Source of the DNA: Escherichia virus KFS-EC3
Sequence record: MZ065353.1
DNA length: 64,000 nt
Strand: one strand, 5' to 3'
A model generated the notes under the pieces. That model was not told the origin of the DNA and searched no databases. It worked only from the letters and a program-made list of their open reading frames with translations. The translations under genes and the position numbers were made by a program. How positions within the stretch are numbered: the stretch's first letter is position 1; every line of letters starts with the position of its first letter. Below are positions 1 through 50,715 of the stretch, in pieces.

Positions 1-1703
1 ATAAAATTCGTGGGTTTATCGATCTAGTTTTAAGTATGTCTTATTACGCTAAAATGCCTTTTTCTGGTGTAATGAGCCCTATTAAAACTTGGGATGCTAT
101 TATTTTTAACTCACTGAAAGGTGAACATAAGGTTATTCCTCAACAAGGTTCGCATGTTAAACAGAGTTTTCCAGGTGCATTTGTATTTGAACCTAAACCG
201 ATTGCTCGTCGATACATTATGAGTTTTGACTTGACGTCTCTGTATCCTAGCATTATTCGTCAGGTTAACATTAGTCCTGAGACTATTCGTGGGCAGTTTA
301 AAGTTCATCCAATTCATGAATATATCGCAGGAACAGCTCCTAAGCCAAGTGATGAATATTCTTGCTCTCCGAATGGATGGATGTATGATAAGCACCAAGA
401 AGGTATCATTCCAAAGGAAATCGCTAAAGTATTTTTCCAGCGTAAAGATTGGAAAAAGAAAATGTTCGCGGAAGAAATGAATGCCGAAGCTATTAAAAAG
501 ATTATTATGAAAGGTGCAGGGTCTTGCTCAACTAAACCAGAAGTTGAACGATATGTTAAGTTCAGTGATGATTTCTTAAACGAATTATCGAATTACACCG
601 AATCTGTTCTTAATAGTCTGATCGAAGAATGTGAAAAAGCAGCTACACTTGCTAACACAAATCAGCTGAACCGTAAAATTCTTATTAACAGTCTTTATGG
701 TGCTCTTGGTAATATTCATTTCCGTTACTATGATTTGCGAAATGCTACTGCTATCACAATTTTTGGTCAAGTTGGTATTCAGTGGATTGCTCGTAAAATT
801 AATGAATATCTGAATAAAGTATGTGGAACTGATGGTGAAGATTTCATCGCCGCGGGTGATACTGATTCGGTATATGTTTGTGTAGATAAAGTAATTGAAA
901 AAGTAGGTCTTGACCGCTTTAAAGAACAAAATGATTTAGTTGAATTCATGAATCAGTTTGGTAAGAAAAAGATGGAACCTATGATTGATGTTGCATATCG
1001 TGAGTTATGTGATTATATGAATAACCGCGAGCATCTGATGCATATGGACCGTGAAGCTATTTCTTGCCCTCCGCTTGGTTCAAAGGGTGTTGGTGGATTT
1101 TGGAAAGCGAAAAAACGTTATGCTCTGAACGTTTATGATATGGAAGATAAGCGATTTGCCGAACCGCATCTAAAAATCATGGGTATGGAAACTCAGCAGA
1201 GCTCAACACCAAAAGCAGTACAAGAAGCTCTCGAAGAAAGTATTCGTCGTATTCTTCAGGAAGGCGAAGAGTCTGTCCAAGAATACTACAAGAACTTTGA
1301 GAAAGAATATCGTCAACTTGACTATAAAGTTATTGCTGAAGTAAAAACTGCGAACGATATAGCGAAATATGATGATAAAGGTTGGCCAGGATTTAAATGT
1401 CCGTTCCATATTCGTGGTGTGCTAACTTATCGTCGAGCTGTTAGCGGTTTAGGTGTAGCTCCAATTTTGGATGGAAATAAGGTAATGGTTCTTCCATTAC
1501 GTGAAGGAAATCCATTTGGTGACAAGTGCATTGCTTGGCCATCGGGTACGGAACTTCCAAAAGAAATTCGTTCTGACGTACTGTCTTGGATTGACTACTC
1601 AACTTTGTTCCAAAAATCGTTTGTTAAACCGCTTGCGGGCATGTGTGAATCGGCAGGTATGGACTATGAGGAAAAAGCTTCGTTAGACTTCCTGTTTGGC
1701 TGA
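1..1703 (+). CDS. 43: DNA polymerase gp43, C-terminal portion (5' end lies upstream of window)
   Basis: Frame open to window edge; family-B polymerase motifs DLTSLYPSII and AAGDTDSVYV; ends SLDFLFG; synteny 43-imm-42. Confidence 0.95.
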   Translation, partial: KIRGFIDLVLSMSYYAKMPFSGVMSPIKTWDAIIFNSLKGEHKVIPQQGSHVKQSFPGAFVFEPKPIARRYIMSFDLTSLYPSIIRQVNISPETIRGQFKVHPIHEYIAGTAPKPSDEYSCSPNGWMYDKHQEGIIPKEIAKVFFQRKDWKKKMFAEEMNAEAIKKIIMKGAGSCSTKPEVERYVKFSDDFLNELSNYTESVLNSLIEECEKAATLANTNQLNRKILINSLYGALGNIHFRYYDLRNATAITIFGQVGIQWIARKINEYLNKVCGTDGEDFIAAGDTDSVYVCVDKVIEKVGLDRFKEQNDLVEFMNQFGKKKMEPMIDVAYRELCDYMNNREHLMHMDREAISCPPLGSKGVGGFWKAKKRYALNVYDMEDKRFAEPHLKIMGMETQQSSTPKAVQEALEESIRRILQEGEESVQEYYKNFEKEYRQLDYKVIAEVKTANDIAKYDDKGWPGFKCPFHIRGVLTYRRAVSGLGVAPILDGNKVMVLPLREGNPFGDKCIAWPSGTELPKEIRSDVLSWIDYSTLFQKSFVKPLAGMCESAGMDYEEKASLDFLFG

Positions 1704-1716
1704 TAGAATAAATCTA

Positions 1717-1737
1717 GGGACCTCCGGGTCCCTTTTT
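1717..1737 (+). terminator. Rho-independent terminator after gene 43
   Basis: Hairpin GGGACC-TCCG-GGTCCC followed by TTTTT. Confidence 0.65.
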
Positions 1738-1820
1738 CATACAAGTAATATAAATCTATACTTAGGAAAAATAGATGATTCTAGGTCCTATAAATTCATT
1801 AAAAATTTTTTCACAAAACT

Positions 1821-1850
1821 GTTTACATCCCTGTTCTTCCATGGTACTAT
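1821..1850 (+). promoter_or_regulatory. early (sigma70-type) promoter inside PeSL-like cassette
   Basis: TTTACA-N17-TACTAT; same cassette recurs at 29632, 30139, 33441, 50716. Confidence 0.5.
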
Positions 1851-1878
1851 ACAACTATCAACTACGGAGGAACACAAA

Positions 1879-2130
1879 ATGAAAAACATTCAAACTAATT
1901 TTATTCAAAATTTAAAAGTTGTTAATGCAGAAAAAGCTAATAAACTCTTTAAAGTTAAAGAATTCGAAAATGAAGGTAATACTTATGGTATTATAGAACA
2001 AAATGGAATGGTGACTGGATTAGAAATTTATAATGGCAAAGGAAAATTTCAGTCACAGCCAATTTCTGTTATGGGTGTAAGAAAAGGAATTAAAACTGAA
2101 GATGCTTTAAAATTATTTGTTAAGTTTTAA
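1879..2130 (+). CDS. hypothetical protein (83 aa), cassette cargo ORF
   Basis: ATG 7 nt after SD GGAGG in conserved leader; ORF-track frame 1696..2130 trimmed to this ATG. Confidence 0.5.
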   Translation: MKNIQTNFIQNLKVVNAEKANKLFKVKEFENEGNTYGIIEQNGMVTGLEIYNGKGKFQSQPISVMGVRKGIKTEDALKLFVKF

Positions 2131-2142
2131 GAGGAAATTATT

Positions 2143-2523
2143 ATGAAAATCGCTATTTTGGTTATTGCGTTGGGTCTTACTGGTTGTGTAGCTCAAGGAC
2201 CGGTAGTAAATCAATCTGATGTAGGAAAAATTGTAAACTGTTCAAGCAAATTTTATAATCCTAACGTCAAGTGTTATAAAGAAGCTCCAAAACAGACAGT
2301 AGAACAAATGCAGGCGAATTTTGACGAAGCTATTCGTCCAGACGAATCTGCTCAAGCATATCGTAATTCAGATGTAATTACACGTGAAGAAAAAATTGAA
2401 AACTACTGCGCCGAACTTTGGGCTAATTGGGCTAATAATTACCAATGGCGTACTGGTAAAAATGCTCCGATGGAGTATGTAGTGAATTCTTATAATTCAT
2501 GCGTAAAAAATTTGACTAAGTGA
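2143..2523 (+). CDS. predicted lipoprotein (126 aa), imm.1-like position
   Basis: SD GAGGAAATT; N-terminal signal peptide with lipobox LTGC. Confidence 0.6.
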   Translation: MKIAILVIALGLTGCVAQGPVVNQSDVGKIVNCSSKFYNPNVKCYKEAPKQTVEQMQANFDEAIRPDESAQAYRNSDVITREEKIENYCAELWANWANNYQWRTGKNAPMEYVVNSYNSCVKNLTK

Positions 2524-2530
2524 GGAAAAC

Positions 2531-2782
2531 ATGGAAACTTTAGTAGCAGGTTCAATTTTTATGGTTTTAGTTTCAGGCGTGTTGGCTATTATTATATACA
2601 TGCTTCCATGGTTCATCGCCTTGATGCGTGGGTCAAAATCGACAGTAGGAATCTTTTTCACGTCTTTACTGTTTAATTGGTCAATTATTGGTTGGTTTAT
2701 TACATTTATTTGGTCAATTGCGGGTGAAACTAAAAAATCCGCACAACCAAATCAAGTAATTATCATCAGAGAGAAGGAATGA
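2531..2782 (+). CDS. imm: superinfection immunity membrane protein Imm
   Basis: 83 aa, two hydrophobic helices, same length and position as T4 Imm. Confidence 0.85.
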   Translation: METLVAGSIFMVLVSGVLAIIIYMLPWFIALMRGSKSTVGIFFTSLLFNWSIIGWFITFIWSIAGETKKSAQPNQVIIIREKE

Positions 2783-2928
2783 AAAGCAAAATTTTAGCAG
2801 TATTGCTTTTAATCTTGATGATTATAATAAGTATATACTATAGCGTAACGGTTCCTTGTATGATTCCGACACTTATTATAGGTTGGGGTTTATTACTGTT
2901 ACAAGTTAAATATGAATGTATCAATTGA
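2779..2928 (+). CDS. small hydrophobic protein (49 aa)
   Basis: ATG overlaps imm stop (ATGA); single TM-like segment; below ORF-track size cutoff. Confidence 0.3.
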   Translation: MKSKILAVLLLILMIIISIYYSVTVPCMIPTLIIGWGLLLLQVKYECIN

Positions 2929-2935
2929 GGTTTAA

Positions 2936-3676
2936 ATGATTAGTGACTCTATGACAGTTGAAGAAATCCGTCTTCATTTGGGGCTTGCATTAAAGGAAAA
3001 AGATTTCGTAGTTGATAAAACTGGTGTTAAAACTATTGAAATTATTGGTGCATCATTTGTAGCAGATGAACCTTTTATTTTTGGCGCTCTTAATGATGAA
3101 TACATTCAACGTGAACTTGAATGGTATAAGTCTCAAAGTCTGTTTGTTAAAGATATTCCAGGTGAAACACCGAAGATTTGGCAGCAGGTAGCATCTTCTA
3201 AAGGCGAAATTAACTCGAATTATGGTTGGGCCATCTGGTCAGAAGATAACTATGCCCAGTATGATATGTGTTTAGCTGAACTTGGTCAAAATCCTGATTC
3301 TCGACGCGGTATCATGATTTATACTCGTCCATCCATGCAATTTGACTACAATAAAGATGGTATGTCAGATTTCATGTGTACGAATACAGTACAGTACCTG
3401 ATTCGTGATAAGAAAGTCAATGCGGTTGTTAGCATGAGAAGCAATGATTGCTGGGCAGGCTATCGTAATGATTATGCTTGGCAAAAATACGTACTAGATA
3501 AATTAGTATCTGATTTGAATGCAGGCGACCCATCGCGGCAATATAAAGCAGGTTCTATTATATGGAACGTTGGAAGTCTTCATGTGTACGAAAATCAGTT
3601 TTATTTAGTTGACCATTGGTGGAACACCGGTGAGACTCATATTGCTAAAAAGGATTATACTGGAAAATGGAAGTAA
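2936..3676 (+). CDS. 42: dCMP hydroxymethylase
   Basis: 246 aa, near-identical to T4 gp42 as recalled (MISDSMTVEEIRLHLG...). Confidence 0.95.
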   Translation: MISDSMTVEEIRLHLGLALKEKDFVVDKTGVKTIEIIGASFVADEPFIFGALNDEYIQRELEWYKSQSLFVKDIPGETPKIWQQVASSKGEINSNYGWAIWSEDNYAQYDMCLAELGQNPDSRRGIMIYTRPSMQFDYNKDGMSDFMCTNTVQYLIRDKKVNAVVSMRSNDCWAGYRNDYAWQKYVLDKLVSDLNAGDPSRQYKAGSIIWNVGSLHVYENQFYLVDHWWNTGETHIAKKDYTGKWK

Positions 3677-4308
3677 ATGTGCCACATGTTTATAAGTATA
3701 AACATCCTAAAACTAAAAAGTGGTATATAGGAAGTCATGATGGTCACAACCCGAATTATGATGGTTCGGGTGTAGTTTGGCAACATGCTAAAAAGAAATA
3801 TGGAATAAAATCCTTTAATAAAGAAATATTATATGAAGGACCAATGTTTAGACAGGTTGAAGAAATTATTTTAACTTGTTTAGATGCTGCTAATTGTCCG
3901 GATTCATATAATTTAAAGAATGAAGCATGGGGAGGAAGTTTTCCAGGCAAATTAAATGGAATGTACGGTAAAAAACTATCTCCAGAAGAAAGATATAAGT
4001 GCGGAAATGCCTTTCGTGGAATCAAGCGTCCTGATCATTCTAAAAGAATGAAAGGCGAAGGTAATCCAATGTATGGTAAAAATGAGCAGGCATATGGAAT
4101 TATAAATCGAGCCAAGGAAAATTCTGGTAAAACTTATGAAGAAATTTTTGGCGTAGAAAAAGCTAAAATAATTAAAGAAACGATGTCTAAAAATCGTAAA
4201 GGAAAACCTCATAATTTGATAGAAAAAATATGTCCGCATTGCGGACTAAAAGGACGTGGGCCAAATATGACAAGATACCATTTTGACAAATGTAAGGCAC
4301 TTAAATGA
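3667..4308 (+). CDS. GIY-YIG homing endonuclease-like protein (Seg-type) with NUMOD3-like repeats
   Basis: VYKYKHPKTKKWYIGSH...YDGSG motif; repeated G-K/R-x-S/N modules; C-terminal CPHC...C; overlaps 42 stop and downstream start. Confidence 0.75.
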   Translation: MEVNVPHVYKYKHPKTKKWYIGSHDGHNPNYDGSGVVWQHAKKKYGIKSFNKEILYEGPMFRQVEEIILTCLDAANCPDSYNLKNEAWGGSFPGKLNGMYGKKLSPEERYKCGNAFRGIKRPDHSKRMKGEGNPMYGKNEQAYGIINRAKENSGKTYEEIFGVEKAKIIKETMSKNRKGKPHNLIEKICPHCGLKGRGPNMTRYHFDKCKALK

Positions 4309-12252: not shown

Positions 12253-12452
12253 TGGCTCGTTTAAATAAACGCCAGCTTAAGAAAGCCCACAAGAAACGTA
12301 TTGACCAGCTATTTAAAAATTATGACAAGGAGCTCGTATGTGAGCTCTTATCTAATCAGCTCCACAAAGCTTACACAATTAAAACTGGACATATACAATT
12401 AGGTAAGGTGCATGAAGAAGCCTTAAAATTAATTATAGAGCATTCAAAATGA
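12252..12452 (+). CDS. hypothetical basic protein (66 aa)
   Basis: ORF with overlapping stop/start (TAATG) after gene 56. Confidence 0.45.
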   Translation: MARLNKRQLKKAHKKRIDQLFKNYDKELVCELLSNQLHKAYTIKTGHIQLGKVHEEALKLIIEHSK

Positions 12453-12658
12453 AATTTGATTTTTATGCATGGCAAAAAGCCGGGAGACCGGCTAGTCGAG
12501 CATTTGGTTCTGATGGATATAATATTAGAGCTCATTGGAAGTTTAATGCTCCAGACGATTATTCTCCGGTAGTTATTAACGGTGATGTTGTTATATTAAC
12601 TAAAATTGGATATTTTAGCGTTCCACGAGAATTTATTATAAATAATCATGTAATTTAA
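12449..12658 (+). CDS. hypothetical protein (69 aa)
   Basis: ORF overlapping previous stop (ATGA). Confidence 0.45.
   Translation: MKFDFYAWQKAGRPASRAFGSDGYNIRAHWKFNAPDDYSPVVINGDVVILTKIGYFSVPREFIINNHVI
12637..12644 (+). promoter_or_regulatory. late promoter (TATAAATA) for soc
   Basis: Exact T4 late-promoter -10 octamer about 30 nt upstream of soc. Confidence 0.5.
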
Positions 12659-21407: not shown

Positions 21408-21514
21408 ATTTGCATAAAGTTTAAAATTTTTTCATAAAACTATATACATCAGTAGTTGATTATGGTACTATATCAATATCAACTACTGATACAGAAAACA
21501 ACTTGGAGAATAAA

Positions 21515-21784
21515 ATGGAAAACTTAATTATCATCGAACAATCTTTCAACGATTATGGTATGGCTTATGGTTATCGTGCGATAATGGAAGATTCTCGTGG
21601 ATGTGTTATCGATATTGCTGAATGTAAAGATTTACTGCAGCTTTTGAAGATTGTTCGTAAAAATTGGGATTGTGAAAACATTAAAGTTCGTGTTGTAACG
21701 GAAGAAGAAACTGTTTTTCATGATGTAAAATTTGCCAAAGGTGCTGCTACTCTTCTGAAACGCATTGCTCCACTGTTCAATTAA
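21515..21784 (+). CDS. hypothetical protein (89 aa)
   Basis: ATG after SD GGAGAATAAA; preceded by degenerate cassette promoter. Confidence 0.45.
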   Translation: MENLIIIEQSFNDYGMAYGYRAIMEDSRGCVIDIAECKDLLQLLKIVRKNWDCENIKVRVVTEEETVFHDVKFAKGAATLLKRIAPLFN

Positions 21785-22434: not shown

Positions 22435-22611
22435 ATGCCAATGTATGATTATAAATGCCAATCCGAAGATTGCGGGCATGAATATGAAAAAATTAAAAAG
22501 ATTTCTGAACGAGAAAATGATGTTTGCCCTAAATGTCATCGTTTGTCTACTCGTCGGCCTTCTGCTCCTAAGCATGTAAATGGTGGTTTTTACGACTTAC
22601 TTAAAGGGTAA
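22435..22611 (+). CDS. small zinc-ribbon protein (58 aa)
   Basis: SD AAGGA; MPMYDYKCQSEDCGHEY...CPKCHRL with two CxxC pairs; below ORF-track cutoff. Confidence 0.5.
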   Translation: MPMYDYKCQSEDCGHEYEKIKKISERENDVCPKCHRLSTRRPSAPKHVNGGFYDLLKG

Positions 22612-29615: not shown

Positions 29616-29631
29616 AAATTTTCACAAAACG

Positions 29632-29661
29632 GTTTACATACCACAAGGACTGTGGTATTAT
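29632..29661 (+). promoter_or_regulatory. early promoter inside PeSL-like cassette
   Basis: TTTACA-N17-TATTAT followed by conserved leader ACAACTATCAACTACGGAGGAACAGAAA. Confidence 0.5.
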
Positions 29662-29689
29662 ACAACTATCAACTACGGAGGAACAGAAA

Positions 29690-29953
29690 ATGAAATTTAA
29701 GTTCTTTTACGTTAAACATAAAATTACCGGTGAATTTATTGCATTTACGACTTCAACTACAGATGAAGGAGATATTTTTACTGCAGTATTTTTATCAAAA
29801 TGGGAATCAGATCAACCTTACTTATCATCACGTGAAGATCTTCAACAATTAGTTAATGGAGAATATAATGATTCATGGTCATATTTAGTCCATGATTGTG
29901 TTAAAAAGGCAATAAAACAAAAACGCTTGGAAATCGTTGAGATTGAACTATGA
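29690..29953 (+). CDS. hypothetical protein (87 aa), cassette cargo ORF
   Basis: ATG 7 nt after leader SD GGAGG. Confidence 0.5.
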   Translation: MKFKFFYVKHKITGEFIAFTTSTTDEGDIFTAVFLSKWESDQPYLSSREDLQQLVNGEYNDSWSYLVHDCVKKAIKQKRLEIVEIEL

Positions 29954-30138
29954 GTTCATTATGGTGGTGTTTCGTTTGGTTAATTAGTATTCCTTTAATT
30001 TGTTTAGCATTTACTTTTGTGATGAGGTTATTATGAAAATTTTGAATTCTGTACTTATTGCTTGTGCGTGGTGGGTTGTGCAAGTTTCAGCGGTAGTAGT
30101 TGGTATTCACATTTATTACGAATATTTTTAAAAAAGTT

Positions 30139-30168
30139 GTTTACAAGACTGTTCCTCTGTGGTACTAT
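30139..30168 (+). promoter_or_regulatory. early promoter inside PeSL-like cassette
   Basis: TTTACA-N17-TACTAT plus identical leader. Confidence 0.5.
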
Positions 30169-30196
30169 ACAACTATCAACTACGGAGGAACAGAAA

Positions 30197-30310
30197 ATGA
30201 AAAAGATTGTTAAAGCTATATGGAATGTAATTATAATTTTAGTTGTTTTGAGTATATTCCCAATTGTTTTAATGATTGATGTATTAAACGCTTACTTTGG
30301 ATTTATGTGA
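30197..30310 (+). CDS. small hydrophobic peptide (37 aa), cassette cargo ORF
   Basis: ATG after leader SD; single TM-like segment. Confidence 0.35.
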   Translation: MKKIVKAIWNVIIILVVLSIFPIVLMIDVLNAYFGFM

Positions 30311-33416: not shown

Positions 33417-33440
33417 TTTCAAAAATTTTTTCACAAAACG

Positions 33441-50691: not shown

Positions 50692-50715
50692 ATTTCAAAA
50701 TTTTTTCACAAAACG

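Follow-up and report, generated by a model that had tools for sequence, protein, structure and literature searches.

The closest described relatives of the locus analyzed here are the PeSL (promoter-early stem-loop) cassettes, known from RB49 (ORF192/ORF210) and from the comparison of T4 ndd.4/.5 with PST ORF268/269 (PMC2839356, PMC4122927). For the T4/PST pair, the element has been described as a stem-loop, an A/T block, a promoter of the form TTTACW-N17-TAYWAT, an SD sequence and an ATG (PMC4122927), and the PeSL mini-circle crossovers sequenced by Arbiol et al. fall between the -10 box and the SD/ATG (PMC2839356). The T4 early promoter class is described in PMC2988021.

At the level of the gene product, Kibby et al. 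(bioRxiv 2024, preprint) carried out an AlphaFold-multimer screen of 629 Tequatrovirus protein clusters against Klebsiella bNACHT11, an NLR-related defense protein, in which T2 gp046 (YP_010073694.1) was among the top scorers (PMC11702601). Co-expression of gp046 and bNACHT11 in E. coli led to a large drop in colony formation, and gp046 also activated bNACHT02 and, unexpectedly, bNACHT01 (PMC11702601). The evidence on gp046 is genetic only; binding constants were measured for gp006, gp009 and gp057, and binding constants and/or deletion mutants are reported for the activators gp006, gp009, gp028 and gp057 (PMC11702601). Contact between bNACHT11 and the characterized activators is of the protein–protein type and involves mainly hydrophobic residues, and according to the authors' hypothesis, the activators have a host partner in common, of which the sensor domain is a mimic (PMC11702601). 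Counter-defense functions, finally, have been assigned to the T-even ORFans T4 NrdC.1 (anti-Septu), Bas37_0203 (anti-Druantia III), Bas37_0260 (anti-McrBC) and Tk.4/AdfM (anti-DarTG2) (bioRxiv 10.1101/2025.11.20.689424).

Here we consider a stretch of 64,000 nucleotides from Escherichia virus KFS-EC3 (MZ065353.1; hereafter the window), in which an earlier note had described a terminator, a promoter with its leader and an 83-residue open reading frame between gene 43 and an imm.1-like lipoprotein gene. All of these elements are present, at 1717–1737, in the interval that follows and at 1879–2130, respectively. We propose that the reading frame, ORF-A, is the T2-type allele of a three-state site between gene 43 and imm.1 and likely encodes an immediate-early, host-binding effector, a reading to which we assign a probability of roughly 0.6. 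Its genetic and evolutionary part is held with high confidence; the effector function taken by itself is put forward tentatively, at clearly less than even odds. Much of the groundwork existed already: the gene had been catalogued, publications describe the cassette mechanism, and a phenotype of the T2 protein is on record. To this the present work contributes the division of the site into three alleles, the breakpoint mapped in the window and a second location of the gene in Dhakavirus. The features of the region are as follows.

1–1703, + strand: 3' part of gene 43, DNA polymerase (ORF 36–1703, stop codon 1701–1703), matching the T2, RB51 and T4 annotation at the same position
1717–1737, + strand: intrinsic terminator of the gene 43 transcript (GGGACC-tccg-GGTCCC at 1717–1732, T5 at 1733–1737)
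1783–1821, + strand: remnant of a PeSL stem-loop (TCTAGGTCCTAT...) with an A/T-rich, UP-like block (AAAAATTTTTT), from alignment to the copies at 50702 and 33427
1822–1850, + strand: early promoter (sigma-70, UP/-35/TGn/-10), with TTTACA at 1822–1827, N17 and TACTAT at 1845–1850
1851–1864, + strand: conserved leader ACAACTATCAACTAC, the allele-exchange zone by comparison with Shfl2 and T2
1865–1878, + strand: short form of the leader, carrying the SD GGAGG (same sequence in T2 and in the copies at 29618 and 30125, nearly identical in Dhakavirus)
1879–2130, + strand: ORF-A, the T2 gp046 allele, 83 aa (ATG at 1879, stop codon 2128–2130; PHROG 18567)
2131–2142, + strand: intercistronic junction GAGGAAATTATT with the imm.1 SD, present with ORF-A as with ORF-B and missing in T4
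2143–2523, + strand: imm.1 lipoprotein (DUF5481, E 5e-72; lipobox L-T-G-C at residues 12–15), in the same transcription unit as ORF-A
2531–2782, + strand: imm, superinfection immunity membrane protein (PF14373), in the same transcription unit as ORF-A

Identity of ORF-A and its upstream signals

The window belongs to a T2-like Tequatrovirus, with ECP2301 as the best DNA match (99.7%; T2, 95.7%). The ORF-A product is 100% identical over 83 aa to T2 gp046 (tblastn, NC_054931 24682–24930), whose coding sequence at NC_054931 24679–24930 is recorded as KMC23_gp046, YP_010073694.1, T2_046 and BBC14661.1. It is 97.6% identical to RB51ncORF048c, which occupies the same locus with the same promoter, leader and downstream genes. 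The annotated copies, T2_046, RB51 ncORF048c and bas43_0162 of the BASEL phage Bas43, are all labeled 'hypothetical protein', and PHROG 18567, whose profile covers residues 1–83 of 83 (E 7.4e-52), carries no function annotation. Across the 30 phage records with the gene, the protein is 97–100% identical at a DNA divergence of 4–5% (up to 5%). Nine synonymous and no non-synonymous differences separate ORF-A from the T2 gene, and dN/dS is 0.05 against RB51 and 0.05–0.15 within genera. In public assemblies, 127 blocks encode exactly this protein, and at the eight metagenome or assembly places that were inspected, the context is identical in all.

Given this constancy of the protein despite DNA drift, together with the SD (GGAGG at 1866–1870, spaced 8 nt from the ATG at 1879) and the full-length match to PHROG 18567, the sequence identifies ORF-A as a real gene under strong purifying selection, more than a chance open reading frame. 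By the same comparisons, it is an already catalogued accessory gene of T2-like phages and not a new one. The term orphan used in the earlier note is apt in so far as no homologue occurs outside T-even phages, but it overlooks a gene on record as T2 gp046, RB51ncORF048c, bas43_0162 and PHROG 18567. No paralogue was found within the 64-kb window and no copy in an IMG/VR scan, and the literature searched held no relevant paper mentioning RB51ncORF048c, T2_046 or BBC14661. Two overlapping reading frames were rejected as genes: a 144-aa frame from TTG 1696, which reads in frame across the terminator and promoter, and a 35-aa frame at 1775–1882, which spans the promoter and is judged spurious. Some product names in the databases are misleading; ORF-A is a 'tail tape measure protein' in the T2 record AP018813.1, a name propagated to UniRef, and a 'recombination protein' in ZCEC14 (OP168898.1).

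The terminator hairpin begins 14 nt after the gene 43 stop codon, with a minimum free energy of -13.9 kcal/mol (z = -2.3 against shuffled sequences), and a terminator scan recovers 1717–1737 where 0.6 sites are expected by chance. It is conserved in T4, T2, Shfl2 and JoYop, and the T4 record M37159 annotates the same hairpin as a potential terminator. The terminator belongs to gene 43; T4 carries it in its empty allele as well, and it did not arrive with ORF-A. Farther downstream, the promoter TTTACA-N17-TACTAT fits the PST/T4 PeSL consensus TTTACW-N17-TAYWAT; TG (1842–1843) precedes the -10 box, and the -35 box has an A/T-rich block ahead of it. For T4, the record X75802 marks a sister copy of this family as a promoter. 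Transcription would start at about 1857. The leader from the -10 box to ATG 1879 measures 28 nt and holds GGAGG; its segment 1865–1878 thus contains GGAG, the RegB cleavage motif. In T4, RegB cleaves at GGAG, and the ORF-A leader may be one of its targets. An Rfam search of 1500–3000 found nothing.

The cassette family and the mosaic breakpoint

The promoter and leader of ORF-A form one of six copies of a repeat in the window (1807, 21428, 29618, 30125, 33427 and 50702; 60–86% identity over 84 nt), which justifies the word cassette. Directly upstream of the copies at 33427 and 50702 lies an intact GC stem-loop, whereas at 1783–1800 only a decayed remnant is found, which aligns with the stem-loops GGGGACCCTAGAGGTCCCC-T6 and GGGGAGCCTCGGCTCCCC-T6 of copies 50702 and 33427. 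The family comes with two leaders. Short leaders (ACTACGGAGGAACAnAAAATGAAA) lie ahead of ORF-A and of the genes at 29690 and 30197; long ones (ACTACTGATAC...GGAGAAnnAAATG) are found before imm.1 of T4, before ORF-B and in the window copies at 21428 and 33427. At the 43/imm.1 site, T2 has a promoter that barely differs from window copy 30125, and on that basis we suggest that conversion may occur among the cassette copies. The copies at 29618–29701 and 30125–30208, which carry the short GGAGGAACA leader, lie in the denB/ndd region, the former driving an 87-aa ORF (ATG 29690) and the latter a 37-aa hydrophobic ORF (ATG 30197). Similarity among copies extends into the first codons (ATGAAAAAGATT versus ATGAAAAACATT).

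How closely does this arrangement follow the published PeSLs? The ORF-A cassette has the same promoter, A/T block, SD and ATG as those of RB49, T4 and PST; like them, it is repeated in the genome, sits at an insertion or replacement between close relatives and has its crossover between the -10 box and the SD. The differences concern the flanks. Only one full PeSL adjoins ORF-A, and in place of a second one, the downstream exchange point is a short SD/start region held in common (GAGGAAATTATTATGAAAAT). In compact PeSLs the terminator abuts the -35 box, but here the two are about 85 nt apart: the intact hairpin at 1717–1737 stands that far upstream, and a decayed hairpin remnant abuts the ORF-A promoter.

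The breakpoint itself is visible in the comparison with relatives of either allele type. Over the 211 positions from 1640 to 1850, 3 differences separate the window from Shfl2, which carries the ORF-B allele, and 15 separate it from T2, which carries ORF-A. From 1851 on it is T2-like, with no differences in the SD part and 9 silent ones in ORF-A. [quoted passage not shown] The final bases common to the leader variants, ahead of their divergence, also fall in this segment. Compared with T2, the locus thus has only silent DNA differences in the ORF and a promoter half upstream of the -10 box derived from an ORF-B-type lineage. These alignments show that alleles are exchanged by homologous recombination, with one crossover in the leader, just past the -10 box, and the other where the ribosome site or start of imm.1 lies. 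The locus appears to be a clean natural case of PeSL-mediated allele exchange, with a visible breakpoint and with the same gene at two sites in two genera.

Three alleles and a second genomic location

In Tequatrovirus, the 43/imm.1 site is found in three states: with ORF-A, with ORF-B or empty. Among about 530 records carrying the interval, ORF-B occurs in 326, and ORF-A is the minority state at about 6% (30 records, from T2 and about 20 distinct relatives); RefSeq and GenBank duplicates are counted in, and the individual checks cover carriers of ORF-A and ORF-B. T4 and T6 have no gene between 43 and imm.1, only a spacer of 181–183 nt with the same terminator and promoter, the latter driving imm.1 in this empty allele. 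The earlier note had named no T4 gene at this spot, which is correct and extends to T6; across T-even genomes the picture is divided, as T2 has the identical gene under the name 'hypothetical protein'.

Alleles differ only between the leader past the -10 box and the ribosome site of imm.1. Those with ORF-A and those with ORF-B have the junction GAGGAAATTATTATGAAAAT in common. In T4, a leader of the ORF-B allele runs straight into imm.1 at ATGAAAAT, so that the empty allele looks like a deletion (or, in reverse, an insertion) across an 8-nt repeat. Delivery by a cassette, as proposed in the earlier note, is well supported by the six-copy promoter/leader family and the breakpoint in the leader, with one correction: the terminator and promoter are resident in all alleles, and exchange is limited to the segment from the leader to imm.1. 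ORF-B is unrelated to ORF-A and of an exported type (78–85 aa, PHROG 4189, a hydrophobic N-terminus and four Cys). It is acidic (78 aa) and far more variable than ORF-A, with identities from under 60% to 100%. Copies lie at L003 1785–2021, L004 1786–2043 and L005 1786–2022, and in that of PinkRuby, seven residues of the hydrophobic segment (VCLVALA) are duplicated.

Downstream, imm.1 begins twelve bases past the ORF-A stop codon and is followed by imm, 42.1 and gene 42. The neighbor at 2143–2523 is, as the earlier note had it, an imm.1-like lipoprotein, with its LTGC lipobox and DUF5481 domain. Several annotations in this stretch merit correction or mention. The RefSeq records of T4 (NC_000866.4) and T2 (NC_054931.1) misname imm.1 'iduronate sulfatase'. 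The gene 42.1 (2779–2928) encodes a 49-aa hydrophobic protein (PHROG 3610; PF26865 in one metagenome copy) that is annotated in RB51, PinkRuby and Bas43, and the T2, T4, T6 and Shfl2 records leave about 153 nt unannotated there. Between gene 42 and the beta-alpha-glucosyltransferase gene, and overlapping both, lies a 213-aa Seg-like homing endonuclease ORF (3667–4308; PHROG 314, a weak NUMOD3 match, N-terminal VYKY...YIGS), absent at the same spot in T2 and RB51 and present in one phage contig from an E. coli assembly, L018.

Seven Dhakavirus records (IME08, dhabil, dhaeg, CLB_P2 and EcWhh-1 among them) carry a homologue of ORF-A with 54% amino-acid identity, which matches PHROG 18567 at E 7.8e-39 and has a pI of 9.3. 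The two proteins share 40 invariant residues at saturated silent sites (dS about 2.1, dN 0.38). The homologue lies elsewhere, in the hyperplastic region that separates rI.-1 from mobD.3, where it stands behind a stem-loop, GTTTACA-N17-TACTAT and a TATCAACTA...GAGGAGAACAAAATGAAAAC leader (TATCAACTAATGAGGAGAACAAAATGAAAAC) and starts its own transcription unit after a terminator, not next to imm. Its annotation in IME08 (L007 3462–3722) starts 30 nt too early, inside the -10 box, giving 86 aa in place of 76 aa. Next to it, IME08 has a further reading frame of about 81 aa that bears no annotation (L007 3727–3972); it is missing in CLB_P2, which marks another indel beside the homologue.

Such a distribution could be that of a neutral passenger, a functionless ORFan shuffled by PeSL recombination: the gene is patchy, at about 6% of the Tequatrovirus records and 7 Dhakavirus records, it is absent from T4 and T6, and it has no homologues elsewhere. 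We nevertheless consider this very improbable, because drift would hardly leave 0 non-synonymous against 9 synonymous changes relative to T2, or 40 residues invariant across genera where silent sites are saturated, and because the exact protein recurs in 127 public assembly blocks. The location also bears on a different alternative, in which ORF-A is part of an envelope or superinfection module with imm.1 and Imm, for example as a cytoplasmic helper of superinfection exclusion or of competition between phages. Co-transcription with imm.1 and imm fits this proposal, as do the exported, Cys-containing protein encoded by the alternative allele and the position of the Dhakavirus homologue two genes from rI, the lysis-inhibition (superinfection-sensing) gene. 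The proposal is, however, improbable: the ORF-A protein has no signal peptide or membrane segment, T4 and T6 possess Imm and Imm.1 without ORF-A, and the neighborhood is not conserved, given that the Dhakavirus copy is away from imm in a unit of its own behind a terminator.

The ORF-A protein and its proposed role

The ORF-A protein has a mass of 9.4 kDa, a pI of 9.6 and a net charge of about +4.5, with no hydrophobic or transmembrane segment, no signal peptide and no Cys, and is expected to be a small, basic, soluble protein of the cytoplasm. The earlier note had recognized no motif in it, and the searches agree. With the single protein as well as with a profile, there was no match in Pfam, NCBIfam, PADLOC or PDB sequences; a search of 5.8 billion proteins, run in both ways, returned only the two phage clusters already known, and a HMMER search of 1.84 billion representatives matched only the same two. 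These domain, PDB and large protein searches thus yielded no homologue outside T-even phages and no recognizable motif, and no homology or fold likeness to a characterized inhibitor of defense or of the host was found.

Three weak HMMER hits (E 3e-5 to 1e-4) were to long repeat proteins, with FG-GAP-like repeats, with Big_2 repeats and, in the third case, a 4,307-residue protein with 11 matching stretches. The FG-GAP-like and Big_2 hits were rejected as homologues, the match being limited to the IIEQNGMVTGLE hairpin and its score inflated by repetition. The source of these two matches is the hairpin IIEQNGMVTGLEIY (window 1993–2031, residues about 38–51 of ORF-A), whose likeness to the two repeat proteins is probably a convergent beta-hairpin motif and not homology. 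A single-sequence AlphaFold model of ORF-A reached a pLDDT of 62.5; in a run with three sequences, the best model reached 79.5 and the other four 52.6 or below. Neither fold was relied on, as the topologies disagree and one of the five models is confident in the better run. Fold searches with the predicted structures gave no match indicating a biochemical activity.

A small basic protein made early might be a regulator that binds RNA or DNA rather than a host protein. The charge is suggestive (pI 9.6 and about +4.5, with a pI of 9.3 for the Dhakavirus homologue), and other T4 regulators are likewise expressed early. Yet no known nucleic-acid-binding domain or fold match was found for ORF-A, and bNACHT11 recognizes its characterized activators by hydrophobic protein–protein contact, so that we regard this alternative as quite unlikely. 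Still less can be said for an internal protein that is packaged and then injected together with the DNA, as the products of the polymorphic ip genes are. T4 internal proteins bear the capsid-targeting sequence MKTYQEFIAE, with L/I-x-E as the consensus of the prohead-protease site. The ORF-A N-terminus, MKNIQTNFIQ, loosely resembles that sequence, and ip loci are polymorphic cassettes as well. But MKNIQTNFIQN has no Glu at the protease cleavage position, the Dhakavirus homologue does not have that five-residue N-terminal segment, an early promoter is the only one evident, and the first codons, ATGAAAA, belong to the shared cassette leader. We find this alternative hardly credible.

What, then, might ORF-A do? 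The bNACHT phenotype of gp046 was obtained with the YP_010073694.1 product, to which that of the window ORF is identical; few other proteins of phages have been reported to set off an NLR-related sensor of bacteria. The other bNACHT11 activators, T2 gp006 (39.2), gp009, gp028 and gp057 (46.1) and T4 30.5 (PMC11702601), are likewise small (58–89 aa), non-structural accessory proteins, and they have no sequence similarity to one another. Activation of bNACHT fits a host-interacting effector without showing one, for sensing by an immune receptor does not by itself show that gp046 targets the host. In the literature searched there is no report that gp046 inhibits a defense system or a host process. 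ORF-A also resembles the T-even counter-defense ORFans in being small and variably present in a hyperplastic region, often with no domain or fold match (bioRxiv 10.1101/2025.11.20.689424). Those ORFans, unlike ORF-A, have a demonstrated defense target, and ORF-A lies outside the phages screened, T4 being without the gene and Bas37, not Bas43, having been used. The HIDEN-SEQ transposon study was set aside as coverage of ORF-A on the same grounds, since it used T4 and Bas37 and the BASEL carrier is Bas43.

Returning to ORF-A as an immediate-early effector, we envisage the following course of events. Unmodified host RNA polymerase would transcribe the gene within the first minute of infection, as expected from T4 biology (PMC2988021), and by the same analogy the GGAGG site would support strong translation. 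Early shut-off could follow from a RegB cut at GGAG. The product, presumably dispensable in the laboratory, may bind a host protein as a host-takeover or counter-defense effector, as the behavior of its class and the sensor data would suggest. The bNACHT sensor domain, in turn, might detect gp046 directly, possibly by mimicking its host partner. A gain in some hosts, set against the liability incurred with NLR-type sensors, could account for the presence of ORF-A in only about 6% of relatives.

We speculate further, as an extension that we consider unlikely in its full form, that ORF-A binds a conserved host protein imitated by the SNaCT sensor domain of bNACHT01/02/11, which would act as an integrated decoy. 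The trade-off between benefit and detection would then maintain the three-state polymorphism, with PeSL recombination as the switch for quick gain or loss. The host partner of gp046 would bear both on what bNACHT activators do and on whether the sensor is a decoy.

The window also encodes orthologues of three more activators, those of gp009 (98.9% identity), gp006/39.2 (100%) and gp028 (94%); the gp009 orthologue lies at 21515–21781, and the further coordinates are 22435–22608 and 12449–12655. The gp009 orthologue is the first gene behind a promoter/leader copy of the same family (21428–21511), and 39.2 is found farther down the same unit. The occurrence of these orthologues, one of them behind the same cassette family as ORF-A, suggests that the bNACHT sensor is tuned to immediate-early cassette products.
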